A stretch of DNA of 64,000 bases from the sequence record NC_010105.1; one strand, 5' to 3'. Source of the DNA: Escherichia phage JS98. Positions 3,738 through 35,169 of the stretch are shown here, piece by piece (position 1 is the first letter of the stretch; each line of letters begins with the position of its first letter). Both the position numbers and the translations under genes were made by a program. Below the pieces are notes generated by a model that did not search any database, was not told the origin of the DNA, and worked only from the letters and a program-made list of their open reading frames with translations.

Positions 3738-4756
3738 CGTGTAACCTCATTATAAAGTTGTGCGGTCATAGTCTTAAGGGCTTTAACATCTTCTTCAGTG
3801 TGGCCATCAGGAAGGGCGTCGATATAATCATACATCATATCCAAGAGGGATTTAACTTCATCTTCCTCTTCAGAATCATCGATATCAACACTATTATCTA
3901 CCTTAGACACGATACGTAAAGAGTGAACAACCTTTTCAAGCTCTGATTCGAACTTAGTAAGGCCGTCATCGATTTTATCGACTATAACACGAACTGCGAT
4001 ATTTGTAAAATCTTTGTAATCGATAGTCGCATTAGGATAATGAATCTTACGATGCCAACAGGTTTCATTAATGATGAAATCCATTTTATGAGTTTCGGTA
4101 TCGAAAATCCAGAAACCACGAGGGTCGTTCTCATCACCTGCAGTCAGGGTCCATGGAGTACCAATGTACTTAACGTTTGCTGCATCAGAAATAGTGTGGA
4201 AGTGGCCTGACCAAACTTGCTTATACTTTTTAAGGAAATCAGGTTCTAAACCATGGGATTTCATTCCTTTATAGAAATAGAAACCATTTAATTCCCAATG
4301 ACCAACACAGAAATCTGCTGTAGTATTTTTGATATGGTCCATGATATCAGTCGTGTTTTCTTCACACATCCATGGAATCAAATCAATTTCGGTGCCATCA
4401 AAGTTAACCGTAGTAGGTTTTTCAATAACCTTGATATGGTCATATTTACCCAGAACTTCAGAAGCTGCGTTAGGAGTCAAGGTATTTTTGTAGTGCATAT
4501 CATGATTACCAACAATGGTATACATGGTAATGCCATTAGCTTTAAGCAAATCAGAGATTTCGCGAGCGAATTCCATACACTTATGGGTAATTGCTTTACG
4601 AACGTCAAAGATATCGCCGTATTGAATCCATACGGTAATACCATTTGCTTTAGAATAATCAATAGCGTCTTGGATACCTTGACGTTGGATATTTTGTACC
4701 CACACATCATCGGCCTTCACTCCAAGGTGCCAGTCACCTGTGTTTAATATTTTCAT
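3734..4756 (-). CDS. 47: recombination endonuclease subunit gp47 (Mre11/SbcD-like phosphoesterase)
   Basis: Start taken at MKILNTGDWHLG (ATG at 4754-4756), not the upstream in-frame Met of the ORF track; GDWH and GNHD phosphoesterase motifs; colinear with T4 gp47. Confidence 0.9.
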   Translation of the reverse strand: MKILNTGDWHLGVKADDVWVQNIQRQGIQDAIDYSKANGITVWIQYGDIFDVRKAITHKCMEFAREISDLLKANGITMYTIVGNHDMHYKNTLTPNAASEVLGKYDHIKVIEKPTTVNFDGTEIDLIPWMCEENTTDIMDHIKNTTADFCVGHWELNGFYFYKGMKSHGLEPDFLKKYKQVWSGHFHTISDAANVKYIGTPWTLTAGDENDPRGFWIFDTETHKMDFIINETCWHRKIHYPNATIDYKDFTNIAVRVIVDKIDDGLTKFESELEKVVHSLRIVSKVDNSVDIDDSEEEDEVKSLLDMMYDYIDALPDGHTEEDVKALKTMTAQLYNEVTR

Positions 4757-9501: not shown

Positions 9502-9975
9502 TCATTTAAGCGATTTCCTCAGTTGTTTTTTAAATGAATCAACCATTTGTTTCTTTGTGTCAGATTCATTATAAGTCATTCCATGTGAAAGCATTTCAGC
9601 AATCATTTCTTCCTTACCTAATCTACTGAACTCTTTGGTTTTATCAGGAACGAAATTAGGATGGATATTGTTTTCAGTGTAATCAGATTTCAGATAGACC
9701 AGCAAATTCTCTAACCATTCGAGGTAGTCAACGTTTTGACCTTTAAGACCAGAACGGTTGAACTTATGCTTCATTTGTCCTTCTGCAGCATTGCACAGGT
9801 TACATAGTAAACCACGAACCTTACCAGCTTTTGGCCCGCTCAATTCATGGTCGTGGTCAAGGTGGTTACTTTGAACATCAGGGTTTAATTCACGTTTACA
9901 AATCAAACACTTACCACATTGTGCATCATAAAGTTTTTGTTTTTCTTCTTTGTATAATTTGCCGGTCAACAACAT
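9502..9975 (-). CDS. 49: endonuclease VII (Holliday-junction resolvase) gp49
   Basis: 157 aa; MLLTGKLYKEEKQK.YDAQ.GKCLIC.RELNPDVQ.NHLDHDHEL.GPKAGKVRGLLCNLCNAAEG is essentially T4 endo VII. Confidence 0.93.
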   Translation of the reverse strand: MLLTGKLYKEEKQKLYDAQCGKCLICKRELNPDVQSNHLDHDHELSGPKAGKVRGLLCNLCNAAEGQMKHKFNRSGLKGQNVDYLEWLENLLVYLKSDYTENNIHPNFVPDKTKEFSRLGKEEMIAEMLSHGMTYNESDTKKQMVDSFKKQLRKSLK

Positions 9976-10010
9976 AATAAACCCTTACCATTATTAGATA
10001 AGGGTATTTA

Positions 10011-10196
10011 TTATTTTTCAAATGTGCTATAGAACGAACGGTGCAACCGTTTAAATTGACGAATCATCTTTTTGGTAGGACGAGTATACAATCCCACACA
10101 GGTGGCCATAAACTGGTCAGTAGGGCTTCCTTTGATAAGAAGTTTCCAGACCTTGTCACCGTTTAACTTTTCGGTATAGACTAATGCAGTTTTCAT
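10011..10196 (-). CDS. hypothetical protein (61 aa)
   Basis: Intact ORF. Confidence 0.35.
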   Translation of the reverse strand: MKTALVYTEKLNGDKVWKLLIKGSPTDQFMATCVGLYTRPTKKMIRQFKRLHRSFYSTFEK

Positions 10197-10495
10197 GCGA
10201 CCTCAAATTCATTATCATCGTTAGTCCAAAAACACCAGAATGAAGCTTTAGTATCTTCAAACATTTCTTTAGTGTATTCGTATACCTTACCATTGAATTC
10301 GATAGCAGTTACGCCAATGATTTCAGGATTGCCCCATGGAGAAATCTCCACCTTCAAGATTTTAACTTCAGCACCTTCACAGAGCTCGCCTGACTCAAAA
10401 CCGCGATTGCCGTTTAATTCAGGCCAGTCAACATAATGGTCGACATCTTCTTCAGTAATACGAACAGTTTTACCTTCAAATTCAAATAAATTCAT
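10193..10495 (-). CDS. hypothetical acidic protein (100 aa)
   Basis: Intact ORF. Confidence 0.4.
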   Translation of the reverse strand: MNLFEFEGKTVRITEEDVDHYVDWPELNGNRGFESGELCEGAEVKILKVEISPWGNPEIIGVTAIEFNGKVYEYTKEMFEDTKASFWCFWTNDDNEFEVA

Positions 10496-29445: not shown

Positions 29446-30029
29446 TTACGGCATTCCTCAATAAAAGAGTTTAATGTATTTTTCTTAGTGATATCGTCAT
29501 ATACCTTTTTAACTTTAGAAATACGAAAAGGTACTTCAATAACTGCAGTCCATAAAAATGATGCGATAAGTCCTAAGATAGCCGCAGACATCGCTGAAGC
29601 AAATAGCGTAATAGGCAGGTCATTATCCGTTGTCAGGAAAAACCCTAGGAGTGGGAAAAATAATATCCCCATCCAAACATAGAACCTAGAACTCACTAAT
29701 TTGTCGTATTCATCACTCCATGTACGAAAGCCGTATTTTTTGCTATAACAAATCAATGGGTCTGGTGTCTGTTCTTTATGGGGTTCCGGTTGCCAACCAT
29801 TTACGATATAGCCCATTTTATATTCCTCAATTAAAAGTTGTTTCATTTCAGCAGTACAACCCGACCAATCTATTGTACTGGCTGAAATTCCTTCATCGCC
29901 ATCATCAATATTTCGCCATGACTTTTTAATAATCATATTCTCACCACTTGGGATAATGATTCCGGCATTTTCGGGCCGACGGATGAAGTTTACATCAACA
30001 CCCATACAACCCGGTTCATAAAGGGCCAT
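29442..30029 (-). CDS. membrane protein (195 aa; soluble N-domain, C-terminal TM helices)
   Basis: Hydrophobic segments FYVWMGILFFPLLGFFL and LFASAMSAAILGLIASFLWTAVI. Confidence 0.45.
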   Translation of the reverse strand: MALYEPGCMGVDVNFIRRPENAGIIIPSGENMIIKKSWRNIDDGDEGISASTIDWSGCTAEMKQLLIEEYKMGYIVNGWQPEPHKEQTPDPLICYSKKYGFRTWSDEYDKLVSSRFYVWMGILFFPLLGFFLTTDNDLPITLFASAMSAAILGLIASFLWTAVIEVPFRISKVKKVYDDITKKNTLNSFIEECRK

Positions 30030-30715
30030 TACCAGCCCTCCATAGGGAATTCCAGATATACTTGGGCATTAACGCGGATTTCATTTGTAATCTTTTTAAC
30101 ACGGTCTGTATTACGAGACACACGACCAAACCAGCGCCAGCCATTACTTACTGCACGAGAACCTGTATGCCATGTCTGCCAATCAAACTGGAGCAATGTG
30201 CGGTCAGGAGCATCCCACTTGGTTAATTCATTAGACTCAATTTTTTCCAGAACTTCTTTATGCCACTGGCGATAGATAAGTTCGCCTTCAGGAATCTGGC
30301 TAAATTGTACAGTTCCGGTTGCAAAATAAGTAGGACACACATCAGCGTTAACAAGACCAAGAATATGTTCAGAATGGTATCGAGGATTATCATAATCAGG
30401 TTGCCCTGCAGTAATAAAGTGTTGACCAACTGGAATATCCGGACGCGGTACATCATCATGGTGATAACCTGGGATAGCAGGATACCAACCAGGCATAAGC
30501 ATATGAACTCGAGAATCAAATACAACCTGGTCGGTGTTCCAATCGTCCGGCAGGTTCATGATGAAGCTGCGAGTAATAGGACCACCGTTATCAAAAGCGA
30601 AGGCCAACGAACTGTTGAAGAACATAGTTTCGTTTTTGATTTTATCGTTAGAAATTTTACCGGCAAAACTACCTACTGCACGAGCTTGAGAATTAAAAGT
30701 TTTCGGGCTGTTCAT
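30029..30715 (-). CDS. hypothetical protein (228 aa); possible Fe(II)/2-oxoglutarate oxygenase-like (HxD...H...R)
   Basis: GYHHDD then about 100 aa later WHTGSRAVS...R; motif-level guess only. Confidence 0.45.
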   Translation of the reverse strand: MNSPKTFNSQARAVGSFAGKISNDKIKNETMFFNSSLAFAFDNGGPITRSFIMNLPDDWNTDQVVFDSRVHMLMPGWYPAIPGYHHDDVPRPDIPVGQHFITAGQPDYDNPRYHSEHILGLVNADVCPTYFATGTVQFSQIPEGELIYRQWHKEVLEKIESNELTKWDAPDRTLLQFDWQTWHTGSRAVSNGWRWFGRVSRNTDRVKKITNEIRVNAQVYLEFPMEGW

Positions 30716-31020: not shown

Positions 31021-31980
31021 TTATTTTGTGAAAGGACGAATTAAATGTTGGTTATCTTGGAACCGCTTGATGTAGTCATTTTCACCTAGCGTCTTATACA
31101 TATTCACTACAGCTTGGTAGTTTTCCCAGGCATACTCGCGGAACCAGCCTGAAGTGATTGAGGTACACACTTTCTCAAGAGCCATATAGAAACTTAACGA
31201 TGGTGAAATATTGAAGTCATTAGGAACCTGTGAACGTTCTAGGGCCAACACACAAGTTTCTTCATATACGCCAGCCAGTTTAATAGCTTCAGGCAAAGCT
31301 TCAAACTTCTCGCGTGAGGTCATGACTTCAGAACCGTCTTTCATATAAAAGGTATACGCTGGGCGTCCAGCCAATGCCACAGCTTCATGGATAGAGTCAT
31401 GGTCTAATGTATAAATGGTATCATTAAAGAACGATGATTTGTTTACATCCAATTTAGGATGAGAATAGCTCAACGTTTCTTTCTGGCGTTGCAGCATGAT
31501 TTCTTGGAGCTCTTCATTCAAGGTTACACCTTTATTACGAAGATATTTGATGTGGGACATCGTCTTCAAAAAGAACGGGTTGTTCTTCAAATAACGATGG
31601 CTCATTTTGATGGCCAGACAGATATCAGGTGTGGCCCAATAGAAACCCGTAAGACGGTCCTTTTTAATATGATTTTCGGCATATTTCAGGAGACGATAAC
31701 TTGAGGTGAAATCTTCGTCCTGAAGCTCGCCGGTGATTTCTCGTACGTTAGTCAGGGCACGGACGATATAAGCTTCAAAATAGGTTTCTTTACCATTGTA
31801 CATACATTTAAAGGCCTGGACATCAGGATTATCCACAGGAACATGGGCACCGAACATCCGAGCTTTAAAGTGATTCCACGAGCCTTGGTCGGCAATAAAA
31901 TCCCAATCAGAATTTTCGATATACTTACTTTCAATCAGACCAGCGTGGTGCAGTGCACGAGAACCAATAACTAGCATCAT
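31021..31980 (-). CDS. hypothetical protein (319 aa) with N-terminal GS...DxD nucleotidyltransferase-like motif
   Basis: GSRALHHAGLIESKYIENSDWDF near N-terminus; GAGGAAAAT RBS. Confidence 0.45.
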   Translation of the reverse strand: MMLVIGSRALHHAGLIESKYIENSDWDFIADQGSWNHFKARMFGAHVPVDNPDVQAFKCMYNGKETYFEAYIVRALTNVREITGELQDEDFTSSYRLLKYAENHIKKDRLTGFYWATPDICLAIKMSHRYLKNNPFFLKTMSHIKYLRNKGVTLNEELQEIMLQRQKETLSYSHPKLDVNKSSFFNDTIYTLDHDSIHEAVALAGRPAYTFYMKDGSEVMTSREKFEALPEAIKLAGVYEETCVLALERSQVPNDFNISPSLSFYMALEKVCTSITSGWFREYAWENYQAVVNMYKTLGENDYIKRFQDNQHLIRPFTK

Positions 31981-32466: not shown

Positions 32467-32811
32467 CTAGAGTTGTACATCACTTCTACAATATTCTAAA
32501 AATAATTTATCGTTGTCTACTGTATCCCAACGTCGCCAAGATGGATTCCAGACCAAAGCGTTGTCACCACAATCATTGAGCTTAAAATGGTCATAGTACA
32601 TAGCTATGTGTCTAGTCTCGTCACCAGAGAACCCTAGTATAGGCTCGCCGTGGGTATGATACATATGATGGTGCATTGAGAGGTCGCATTTATAAAACAT
32701 CTCACGTTTACCACGGACGAACAAGAAAGCTTGCCCATTCATATAGAATTCTTTATCCGTTTTCAAAAGGTATTTGAATACTGAATCTTTATGCATAAGT
32801 CCTCCTACCAC
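32467..32811 (-). CDS. hypothetical His-rich protein (114 aa)
   Basis: HHHMYHTH cluster. Confidence 0.4.
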   Translation of the reverse strand: MVGGLMHKDSVFKYLLKTDKEFYMNGQAFLFVRGKREMFYKCDLSMHHHMYHTHGEPILGFSGDETRHIAMYYDHFKLNDCGDNALVWNPSWRRWDTVDNDKLFLEYCRSDVQL

Positions 32812-32826: not shown

Positions 32827-33054
32827 TTATTTTCCTAACGAAATACGAGTAGGTTTTTTGCCAAAATATTCTTCATAAGAACCATCTAAACGACCTGCTT
32901 TAGACCGACAATACGAATCGTACTTTTTGTAATAAGTCATCTCAGTATTATAACGCGGGTGTCTATCGGCCATAATAATACTTAACGGCCAACCTTTGGC
33001 ATAATCACGAAGACCGTTTATTTTACGAATGTATCTTTTCTTTAATTTTAGCAT
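32827..33054 (-). CDS. hypothetical basic protein (75 aa)
   Basis: Intact ORF. Confidence 0.4.
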   Translation of the reverse strand: MLKLKKRYIRKINGLRDYAKGWPLSIIMADRHPRYNTEMTYYKKYDSYCRSKAGRLDGSYEEYFGKKPTRISLGK

Positions 33055-33272
33055 GAGCTCGGGTACCAGATTTTACCATCGGGACGAGCAACGAAGGTGC
33101 GACCAGCTTCTTCGCCGTAACAAGAGCTATTCAGCCAATCTTCAAGACGAACTTCACCATCGTAATCGTCTAACTCAACACCAAAACTTTGAGCAGAAGC
33201 CATATCTTTTACTTTCTTATACAGGGCAGCCAGTTCAAGAGCAGCTTTTTCTAATTCATCAATATCAGTCAT
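33048..33272 (-). CDS. WSSS-C tail family paralog 1 (74 aa), ends WYPSSC
   Basis: Acidic helical protein; internal WLNSSC and terminal WYPSSC. Confidence 0.5.
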   Translation of the reverse strand: MTDIDELEKAALELAALYKKVKDMASAQSFGVELDDYDGEVRLEDWLNSSCYGEEAGRTFVARPDGKIWYPSSC

Positions 33273-33282
33273 TTTTTATTCC

Positions 33283-33492
33283 TTAGCAAGACATAGAGGA
33301 GCTAAACCAGAAACCTTCACCTTCTGGGATACCGTAGTCATCACGGACCCATTCGTAATCATCATATTCCGGACTAGAAGCCGGAATATATTCTTCGCCA
33401 CCAGCGTGGAAGTGCTGACCTGTTTCGTCAGCCACGGACTGGCCTTTACGTACTAATTCACGGATTTGTTTTTCGATTTCATCAATAGTCAT
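33283..33492 (-). CDS. WSSS-C tail family paralog 2 (69 aa), ends WFSSSMSC
   Basis: Shared C-terminal motif. Confidence 0.5.
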   Translation of the reverse strand: MTIDEIEKQIRELVRKGQSVADETGQHFHAGGEEYIPASSPEYDDYEWVRDDYGIPEGEGFWFSSSMSC

Positions 33493-33501
33493 TTTATTAC
33501 C

Positions 33502-33699
33502 TTAGCATTCGTAAGAGGATGATACCCAAGAGGTACCACTAATAGTAATACAACCGTTATAAAGCGTGATATGTCGTTCTAAGTCACGAACACCATCGAT
33601 ATAGATATCAGCTTCTTCGCGTTCTTCTTTACAAATCTGGATAACGTTTTCAATAGCTGCGGCGGCAGTACGGATTGCACAATCTAATTCACGAGACAT
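33502..33699 (-). CDS. WSSS-C tail family paralog 3 (65 aa), ends WVSSSYEC
   Basis: Shared C-terminal motif. Confidence 0.5.
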   Translation of the reverse strand: MSRELDCAIRTAAAAIENVIQICKEEREEADIYIDGVRDLERHITLYNGCITISGTSWVSSSYEC

Positions 33700-33708
33700 A
33701 ATATTTCC

Positions 33709-33990
33709 TTAACATTCAGAAGAAGAGGACACCCAACCACCATTTTCCAGGTCAGTTGTATAGTCATGAGTATTAACAATAGCCCATTCAGGATGACCAT
33801 CTTCTTCCCAATGGGCAAGGTCAGCTTTCAAGGCACCAGGAGAATAATAGTCACCGCCCATACCGCGAGCAGGGTATATATTAAAATGAGTCTCATATTT
33901 GTCTGCAATTTCCTCGGCACGACGAATAGCTTCATGAATTTCTTTTACTGCGGCCAGAAGCTCTGGGTTGTTATGATTATCATTCATCAT
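33709..33990 (-). CDS. WSSS-C tail family paralog 4 (93 aa), ends GGWVSSSSEC
   Basis: Shared C-terminal motif. Confidence 0.5.
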   Translation of the reverse strand: MMNDNHNNPELLAAVKEIHEAIRRAEEIADKYETHFNIYPARGMGGDYYSPGALKADLAHWEEDGHPEWAIVNTHDYTTDLENGGWVSSSSEC

Positions 33991-33999
33991 AGCTTTTCC

Positions 34000-34290
34000 T
34001 TAGCACATTGCTGAAGAGGAGACCCAGGCACCAACTGTAACGACACCGTTTTCAACTTCACCGCCATTGTTTTCAATTTCATCTTTAAACCACTGGGAGC
34101 ATTCATAACCAACAGGGTAGTATGTACGTCCTGAGCCATAATCACCTGTTCCGAATTGAATACCATACTTATCGGCAATAGCTTCACATTTGTGTTCGAT
34201 GATATCCACTTTATTCAGAAGAGCATAGATAGCCTTTTCTGCAGATTTCTCGTCGTTGTATTCAGGGATTTCAATTTCAATTTTATTCAT
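34000..34290 (-). CDS. WSSS-C tail family paralog 5 (96 aa), ends GAWVSSSAMC
   Basis: Shared C-terminal motif plus internal YECSQWF. Confidence 0.5.
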   Translation of the reverse strand: MNKIEIEIPEYNDEKSAEKAIYALLNKVDIIEHKCEAIADKYGIQFGTGDYGSGRTYYPVGYECSQWFKDEIENNGGEVENGVVTVGAWVSSSAMC

Positions 34291-34640
34291 GATTTACATT
34301 CCTTAATAAAGGTTTCAAGGTCATTACGGTTGGTTTGTTTTACATACTCATTATAATTAGCCATCTCTAAAGCATATCTCTTACGGATGGGAGCATTCAA
34401 AGCATTTGTATGGCAAATATCATACACGAGAGGGATAAAATAAGCCACGACGGCCGGAGCGATTATCATATAGAAACCCATCTCAATAGGCATGACTCCT
34501 TCGATTGCAGCCATAACTGTGGTCATTACCAGACCAACCAGACCGCCGAGCATACCTGTGACAATTCCCGTGAATAAGGAAATAGCAATATCATATTCAG
34601 CCAATTGATAAACATGCGATGAAAGACTAGGCCGTTCCAT
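34287..34640 (-). CDS. membrane protein (about 117 aa, 2-3 TM helices)
   Basis: Hydrophobic segments GIVTGMLGGLVGLVMTTVMAAI and FYMIIAPAVVAYFIPLV. Confidence 0.45.
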   Translation of the reverse strand: MERPSLSSHVYQLAEYDIAISLFTGIVTGMLGGLVGLVMTTVMAAIEGVMPIEMGFYMIIAPAVVAYFIPLVYDICHTNALNAPIRKRYALEMANYNEYVKQTNRNDLETFIKECKS

Positions 34641-35169
34641 TTTGAACCTCTTTAGCGTATTCACGGCATTCAGCAATAAAACGATTAAGCTTCCGTTGTT
34701 GTTTACGACTTTCTAATGTGTACTCAGCAGTTAAGATACCAAGCTCGGCTTTATCATAATTTTTAATATCGGTGTAAGATGGCCGACGGTCGACCATTCC
34801 AAATACATCACCATTTTCTAAAGCCACATAGCATACTAAATGGTAATCATCGTCTGCCATATTAAGAAGCACACAATCATTGCTCTCATTTAAAGAATAT
34901 ACTGAATAACGTAGTCCAGCGAATTCCACTCGTTGAATAGCCAGATTTACGTCAATAATTTCCAAAGCATCTTCAAAAGAAAGGTCTTCAGCTAAAGCAA
35001 AAATAAAAGGTAATTTGGTAGTATCGCCACGGCTAGATGTTCTGCTTAAGAAATCGTTTGAATAGCCTAGGTCTTGGCGAATTCTATAAAGAACTGAATT
35101 GGTTTCATGGGAAAGACCACTATTTTTAAACCAATCAATATTTGATATAAGGTTATCATATAAACTCAT
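34627..35169 (-). CDS. hypothetical protein (180 aa)
   Basis: Intact ORF; first gene after terminator hairpin. Confidence 0.45.
   Translation of the reverse strand: MSLYDNLISNIDWFKNSGLSHETNSVLYRIRQDLGYSNDFLSRTSSRGDTTKLPFIFALAEDLSFEDALEIIDVNLAIQRVEFAGLRYSVYSLNESNDCVLLNMADDDYHLVCYVALENGDVFGMVDRRPSYTDIKNYDKAELGILTAEYTLESRKQQRKLNRFIAECREYAKEVQNGTA

Follow-up and report, generated by a model that had tools for sequence, protein, structure and literature searches.

Small phage proteins with a constant C-terminal Ser-Ser-Cys tail are paired with a DUF7277-DUF7275 nucleotidyltransferase-like gene in Escherichia phage JS98 and other large lytic phages

Escherichia phage JS98 carries, in the 64,000-nucleotide stretch of sequence record NC_010105.1 that was analysed here (the window), five consecutive small genes whose products end in a common tail containing Trp, Ser and Cys, and the locus raises the question of what a set of small proteins with one constant end and divergent bodies is for, and with which other phage protein it works. 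We found that the small proteins and a DUF7277-DUF7275 enzyme encoded nearby form a conserved two-component module, the enzyme gene being the only universal neighbour of the small family. PHROG 899 and 4882 and Pfam DUF7277 and DUF7275 are already known as catalogue entries without assigned function. In the searchable literature no paper was found that mentions the families (under their DUF, PHROG or RB69/JS98 open reading frame names), the tail motif or the pairing; the tail motif and the pairing of the small family with a nucleotidyltransferase (NTase) as a unit are new.

The five-gene array and its protein family

The five genes, P1 to P5, all lie on the minus strand. P5 (34000-34290, 96 aa) is of the 'GDYGSGRTYYP' subtype and ends in WVSSSAMC (G-A-W-V-S-S-S-A-M-C, tail codons at 34003-34026); P4 (33709-33990, 93 aa) is of the 'PARGMGGDYYSPG' subtype and ends in WVSSSSEC (G-G-W-V-S-S-S-S-E-C); P3 (33502-33699, 65 aa) is of a short subtype and ends in WVSSSYEC (S-W-V-S-S-S-Y-E-C); P2 (33283-33492, 69 aa) is of the 'AGGEEYIPA' subtype and ends in WFSSSMSC (G-F-W-F-S-S-S-M-S-C). 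P1 (33048-33272, 74 aa) is of a two-motif subtype, with a terminal K-I-W-Y-P-S-S-C and an internal D-W-L-N-S-S-C-Y-G-E (W46-C51, minus strand, 33120-33137). An original prediction, made by a model from the sequence, had described five consecutive leftward open reading frames (ORFs) of 65-96 aa with a common tail, and each of them is present where it had been placed. Among the ORFs of the window and of the first loci, more than 900 in all, a regular expression for the tail matched P1-P5 and their orthologs only. The tail codons vary from copy to copy, no DNA-level repeat links the copies, and the tail is conserved across the family, in agreement with the predicted selection of the motif at protein level rather than the copying of a DNA repeat. 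Ratios of nonsynonymous to synonymous substitution (Ka/Ks) against Dhakavirus orthologs were 0.07-0.38 in P1, P3, P4 and P5, the copies with same-length orthologs (0.11-0.13 in P5 and 0.07-0.11 in P3), and these four are therefore real genes under purifying selection.

The array is tightly packed, with junctions of the form Cys codon-TAA-GGA(SD)-(N)-ATG. Between the paralogs other than P1 the TAA stop doubles as part of the next Shine-Dalgarno (SD) sequence (TAAGGA), and at P1 the final Cys codon and stop are overlapped by the ATG of the gene at 32827-33054 (75 aa, phrog_7065; tcATGCTAA, window 33048-33054); this arrangement suggests translational coupling. In phage JS10 (NC_012741; locus L001) the P2 ortholog at 9886-10095 is unannotated in RefSeq and lies between the coding sequences 9649-9873 and 10105-10302; its ORF is intact, with the C-terminal end WFSSSMSC.

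PHROG 899 is matched by P5 (E 3e-23), P4 (E 3.4e-19), P2 (E 2.2e-13) and P1 (E 2.6e-9), and PHROG 4882 by P3 (E 2.4e-36), both entries being listed as function unknown. None of the five paralogs had a significant match in Pfam, NCBIfam or PADLOC, and a word-indexed protein search returned close relatives only. A 24-member profile, searched exhaustively against 1.84 billion representative proteins, found 291 clusters at 50% identity, all of 70-139 aa, and in each the match reached the C-terminus. Cys is the last residue in 136 of the 150 best matches and stands at -1 or -2 in the remainder. W(-7), S(-4) (100%), S(-3) (100%) and C(0) are invariant in 127 long-tail representatives, among which G(-9) is found in 69% and position -5 is S, A or P. 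There is also a shorter tail class, W-x-(S/P)-S-(S/N)-C, with the same form as the internal D-W-L-S-S-S-C-Y-G-E of the P1 subtype. A second motif, [A/D]-Y-G-x-G-[G/R]-x-Y-[Y/F]-x-P, is common to the P5, P4 and P2 subtypes; the YGMGGxYxP of P4 is found in Phapecoctavirus, KIL4, YB07 and marine members as well, and some distant members of the family have all three motifs in a single chain. Orthologs of P5 occur in 8 or more genera, and both motifs of P1 are kept in orthologs from Karamvirus, Moonvirus, Marfavirus, Aeromonas phages, PspYZU05 and Phapecoctavirus. Second internal elements had been predicted in paralogs 1 and 5: the W-L-N-S-S-C-Y-G-E of paralog 1 is kept in all orthologs, whereas the 'YECSQW' of paralog 5 is not conserved except for its Trp. 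The S-S-C end has been lost from one P1-type ortholog, at 4353-4598 of an IMG/VR contig (L035), which terminates in TSGNIWGD and may be frameshifted or in decay. The long family members showed no informative N-terminal fusion domain.

With the tails removed, hhalign found P2, P4 and P5 to be homologous over their full length with probabilities of 99.4-99.8% (P4 to P5, 99.8%; P2 to P4 and P5, 99.4-99.6%), and by this profile comparison their paralogy can be regarded as firm. P1 aligned to P2 with a probability of 83% and is probably related to the other copies. The predicted paralogy of all five is uncertain for P3, which reached a probability of <=7% with the others and shares only its tail with them detectably. 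Two to three ancient subtypes have been expanded to five copies in the window. P1-P5 are all acidic (pI 4.2-4.6), and the family median pI is 4.45.

The fold of the small proteins was examined in an AlphaFold2 (AF2) model of a fusion protein in which the enzyme was joined through a (G4S)7 linker to P5, whose C-terminus was left free. The underlying alignment, the register of which was checked, combined 14 paired rows with unpaired homologs of the enzyme and of P5, and both halves of the fusion were well folded. P5 was modelled with a predicted local distance difference test (pLDDT) score of 81-96, and its tail with 85-96. It has a helix at 14-42 (~29 residues), a second helix at 66-74 starting from the central Trp, and five β-strands, three of which follow the second helix; in the tail, A-W-V-S forms the last strand and S-S-A-M a terminal helical turn. 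The tail is thus predicted to be an integral structured element of a folded α/β mini-domain and not a floppy core peptide. The bodies had been described as acidic and helical; the former is correct, and the latter applies to the N-terminal helix, which in the model is followed by a β-rich half. The family as a whole is widespread and virus-specific and consists of small acidic α/β proteins with the hallmark C-terminal G-x-W-x-x-S-S-(x-x)-C.

These properties bear on a first explanation of the tail, namely that a lanthionine or aminovinyl-cysteine (AviCys) cross-link joins its dehydrated Ser to the terminal Cys or that the Cys is lipidated, as in substrates resembling ribosomally synthesized and post-translationally modified peptides (RiPPs). 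As in lanthipeptide and AviCys precursors, a Ser stands a few positions before a (near-)terminal Cys, some lanthionine and AviCys rings have the S-x-x-C spacing of the long tail, and activation of Ser-OH for elimination is in principle within the reach of an NTase. However, Pfam scans of the neighbours revealed no dehydratase, cyclase, HFCD or radical-SAM domain in the conserved neighbourhood; the Ser-Cys spacing is variable (W-x-S-S-S-C, W-x-P-S-S-C and W-x-S-S-S-x-x-C, with Cys at W+5 vs W+7); 1-2 residues follow the Cys in ~10% of members; the Cys of the first motif is internal in two-motif members; the tail lies within a predicted folded domain (the pLDDT of 85-96 given above); and the proteins, at 65-130 aa, are large, have conserved bodies and lack a leader-plus-core architecture. 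We consider this explanation, which had been put forward in the original prediction, extremely improbable.

Linkage to the nucleotidyltransferase-like gene

The partner gene lies at 31021-31980 on the minus strand and encodes a protein of 319 aa with an N-terminal nucleotidyltransferase fold, DUF7277 (E 1e-26, 93.8 bits), and a highly conserved helical C-terminal domain, DUF7275 (E 1e-78, 264 bits; gathering cut-off 27). It has 2241 relatives. G6-S7, D25-x-D27 and E69, which make up the pol-β nucleotidyltransferase signature, are invariant in 48 diverse homologs, and the DUF7275 domain is conserved even more (K125, H128, H174, D193-H194-D195, H198, C243, C272 and others). The enzyme alone was modelled by AF2 with pLDDT 92 and a predicted template modelling score (pTM) of 0.86, and its nearest solved structures are MenT1, MenT3 and MenT4 and the O-nucleotidyltransferases ANT(2'') and LnuA. 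Judged from these residues and the model, the enzyme is apparently catalytically competent. No Pfam family beyond DUF7277 and DUF7275 was matched at E<=1, DUF1814/AbiEii being among those not matched, and searches of PDB, by phmmer with the single sequence and with a profile, gave no sequence match.

To the earlier loci we added 80 IMG/VR loci anchored on the enzyme gene, giving 101, and members of the small family were present in 87 of these in 1-6 copies (mode 2). All of the family ORFs (210/210) are on the strand of the enzyme gene and 206/210 are upstream of it, with a median gap of ~0.8 kb. Unbiased BLAST clustering of the same-strand ORFs placed the tail family as the top cluster (84/94 loci), with separate clusters of P1-type (41/94) and P3-type (21/94) ORFs; the next-ranked cluster, which was e.6-like and found in 38 loci, reflects T4-type synteny only. 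An enzyme homolog adjoins the small genes in all phages that were opened, namely JS10, JS09/RB69-type, KaAlpha, Marfa and KM16, the Aeromonas phages 31, 60AhydR15PP and CC2, and Pseudomonas PspYZU05, and the surroundings of the module change from the interval between e.2 and e.6 in coliphages to a position beside nrdD in Aeromonas phages; the pairing survives this change. Besides the Straboviridae, the pairing is found in Phapecoctavirus, Flaumdravirus KIL4, Menderavirus YB07 (in which the small genes follow the enzyme gene), marine contigs and jumbo contigs of 355-371 kb. In the reverse test, two distant members of the small family (P0186 and P0151) each had an enzyme gene 0-700 bp downstream. 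The genus counts by tblastn were nested, with 386 records for P5 and 732 phage records for the enzyme. A scan of 100,044 species-representative cellular genomes gave four matches, all of them on contigs of metagenome-assembled genomes (MAGs), and the module is virus-specific. A functional linkage between the small proteins and the enzyme is highly probable. The NTase-like ORF had been named as a plausible partner in the original prediction, and it proved to be the single strongly conserved one.

Two other neighbours that had been proposed as partners did not hold up, since both are missing from the module in other phages. The gene for the membrane protein (34287-34676) is lineage-specific, as is the His-rich ORF (32467-32811, minus strand, 114 aa, phrog_9796, MHHHMYHTHGE) that lies between the array and the NTase-like gene, and the module occurs without either in Aeromonas, Pseudomonas, Stenotrophomonas and metagenomic phages. 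The remaining ORFs between the array and the enzyme gene show no conservation with the module. The ORF at 30029-30715 (minus strand, 228 aa) was considered as a third component and rejected, being present in 28 of 104 NTase-anchored loci; it has no Pfam match, is His/Trp-rich (GWYPAIPGYHHDD and WHTGSRAVSNGWRWFGRV), and is exceptionally well conserved, with E ~1e-147 between the coliphage protein and that of Aeromonas phage CC2. In non-T4-like loci (L094, L099, L101 and L103) the module is often near genes for DprA-like/Nuc_deoxyri_tr2 (SLOG-type) proteins, a metallophosphatase, NadV and Sir2, surroundings that may represent a nucleotide- or NAD-related accessory neighbourhood.

The window is of the JS98/JS10 type of Dhakavirus; the region is 95-96% identical to phages UP19, CLB_P2, dhabil and JS10 and byte-identical over 10,957 bp to IMG/VR UViG_641509422. 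The array occupies a hyperplastic stretch between e/nudE/e.2 and the e.6/tRNA genes, and in the equivalent stretch of T4, e.3 is followed directly by e.2. Scans of the whole T4 genome with profile hidden Markov models (HMMs) found no convincing member of the small family (best E 0.034, gp49.3) and no NTase-like partner (best E 0.7), in keeping with the statement of the original prediction that the family was not recognised from T4. The T4 gp49.3 protein (NC_000866, 47823-48131) ends in ...EVSSWWCEK, which is vaguely like the Ser-Trp-Cys end, and is not considered a family member. The T4 genes nrdC.1, nrdC.2 and nrdC.3 have a comparable small-small-large layout and were rejected as unrelated by HMM.

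The location of the array suggests a further explanation, in which the constant tail would send variable cargo into the capsid in the manner of the capsid-targeting sequence (CTS) of the T4 internal proteins. Those proteins too combine a constant terminal element with divergent small bodies, and they are encoded in tandem in the same hyperplastic region, which holds ipIII and internal head protein genes. Their tag, however, is N-terminal and cleaved by the prohead protease, whereas here the constant element is C-terminal, structured (buried in the predicted fold) and linked to an enzyme gene. The N-termini in the window (MNKIEIEIPEY, MMNDNHNN, MSRELDCA, MTIDEIEK and MTDIDELEK) are not conserved between copies, and on inspection none shows a resemblance to the T4 CTS. 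Moreover, the linked gene is NTase-like and not a head gene, and the linkage is kept in myovirus families that are unrelated and assemble their heads by different systems. A role as packaging or injection tag therefore seems very unlikely.

Possible roles of the small proteins

NTase-fold enzymes are known to nucleotidylylate protein hydroxyl groups, as GlnD does on PII and MntA on HepT. In GlnD-PII, GlnE-GS and MntA-HepT an NTase-fold enzyme is genetically paired with a small partner that offers conserved hydroxyls; the present module resembles them in fold and gene pairing alone, and the Gly/Tyr-rich loop YGxGGxYYxP of the small proteins superficially recalls a modification loop. Our proposal is that the enzyme has the small proteins as its cognate partners and recognises their tail as an acceptor or pseudosubstrate, a tentative reading to which we give a probability of roughly one in three (0.35). 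According to this proposal, the constant tail would present invariant hydroxyl and thiol groups to the active site and would either be O-nucleotidylylated as an acceptor or act as a pseudosubstrate gating the enzyme, and the divergent bodies would lend the complex different outputs or inputs. Physical binding of the small proteins to the enzyme, the role of the tail and its chemistry are what we infer. The 'recognition tag' listed in the original prediction comes closest, among its options, to what the evidence favours. The acceptor or pseudosubstrate reading would be the most economical one because the invariant tail residues carry nucleophilic hydroxyl and thiol groups, because O-nucleotidylyl transferases are among the close structural relatives of the enzyme, and because MenT1 has, encoded upstream of it, a small helix-rich protein that gates it (PMC10435456). 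The narrower claim of a covalent modification of the tail by the enzyme at the invariant Ser-Ser(-Cys), which could be O-nucleotidylylation and might be followed by elimination or transfer, we regard as quite improbable.

MenA1, a protein of 68 aa with a long helix, is encoded upstream of MenT1 and binds and blocks the MenT1 active site, its 32-residue helix being sufficient for inhibition (PMC10435456). The small phage proteins might thus be antitoxins or regulators of the MenA1 kind: the enzyme would be a tRNA-modifying enzyme of the MenT/AbiEii type, held off until needed by the long helix of the small proteins lying across its active site, and the tail would be merely a fold or binding determinant and no acceptor. 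The module has several features in common with the MenAT1 and AbiE DUF1814 systems. The nearest solved structures of the partner are MenT1, MenT3 and MenT4, and its fold is similar; its pol-β motifs hG[GS] (G6-S7) and DxD (D25-x-D27) are intact; the gene or genes for a small long-helix protein lie directly upstream on the same strand (206/210 family ORFs), which is the menA1-menT1 order; the paralog helix of ~29 residues can be set beside the inhibitory 32-residue helix in the 68-aa MenA1; and the coliphage module is a few kb from phage tRNA genes. There are also differences. The partner lacks sequence-level membership of DUF1814, including the DUF1814-specific motif IV, and has no DUF1814/AbiEii Pfam match even at E<=1; it has an extra helical domain, DUF7275, with invariant His, Asp and Cys, and with a pI of ~6 it is not markedly basic. 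The small proteins are α/β proteins with an invariant C-terminal W-x-x-S-S-x-x-C that is absent from MenA1, and their best-conserved part is this tail and not the helix. One to six paralogs are found per genome here, and 2-6 divergent 'antitoxins' per enzyme would be atypical. Finally, the module resides in lytic phages and not in bacterial chromosomes, being nearly absent from cellular genomes (4 MAG contigs among the 100,044 species), so that the residency of toxin-antitoxin or abortive-infection systems was not observed. We consider the antitoxin explanation unlikely.

The fusion model bears on whether the small proteins dock on the enzyme at all. Several points weigh against our proposal. 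The pTM of the fusion was 0.70, against 0.86 for the enzyme alone, which by our estimate leaves ~0.27 per residue for the small domain and would mean weak or uncertain docking. Fourteen of the 101 anchored loci have no family member, none was found within the 4-kb flanks of the Gram-positive and KVP40-like DUF7275 homologs, and in Schickermooser a terminator is predicted between the small genes and the enzyme gene. The subtypes are ancient and under purifying selection, a better fit to fixed subunits than to arms-race adaptors, and linkage alone cannot tell an acceptor, an inhibitor and a product-binder apart. As a separate observation, enzyme loop 171-190 (SYSHPKLDVNKSSFFNDTIY; invariant Y172, H174, P175, F184 and F185) had a higher pLDDT in the fusion (74/81, up from 61/65); the small protein might make contact with the enzyme at this loop, or the change could be an effect of the larger alignment.

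The lack of confident docking of the small protein onto the enzyme in AF2 would also be expected if the small proteins act apart from the enzyme and the linkage reflects a shared pathway or regulation. The Gly-rich YGxGGxYxP loop and the Ser/Cys helix cap could, for example, enable them to bind a metal or a nucleotide, so that they might act as sponges for the enzyme product or carry it, or they could serve as acidic decoys against host defence proteins. Their small size and acidity (the median pI of 4.45), the resemblance of their two conserved Gly/Ser-rich motifs to anion-binding loops, and the position of the genes in a hyperplastic region of accessory genes are in accord with such an independent role. 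On the other hand, phage families that differ widely keep strictly to one strand and order of the linked genes, which exceeds what would be expected of mere co-regulation, and no PADLOC, Pfam, NCBIfam or PDB match of the small proteins points to a known binder fold. An independent role is in our judgement doubtful.

Meaning for phage biology

The module is present in more than 700 sequenced phages from several families of large lytic myoviruses of Proteobacteria, where it has gone unnoticed as a unit. The carriers include phages of therapeutic interest, such as JS98/JS10, RB69-like and phAPEC8-like phages and phages of Klebsiella, Aeromonas and Acinetobacter. T4 is without the module and RB69 and JS98 have it, which provides a natural comparison system. 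If the tail is covalently modified, the small proteins would be new phage protein-nucleotide conjugates or carriers, a chemistry undescribed for viruses, and the 2-6 paralogs per genome would be parallel substrates. MenT enzymes belong to bacterial toxin or abortive-infection systems that cripple tRNAs. Should the phage enzyme have tRNA or proteins as its targets, with the small proteins gating it or taking its product, the module would be a new phage route to manipulate host translation or immunity, and it could be a viral counterpart of a bacterial anti-phage toxin family.

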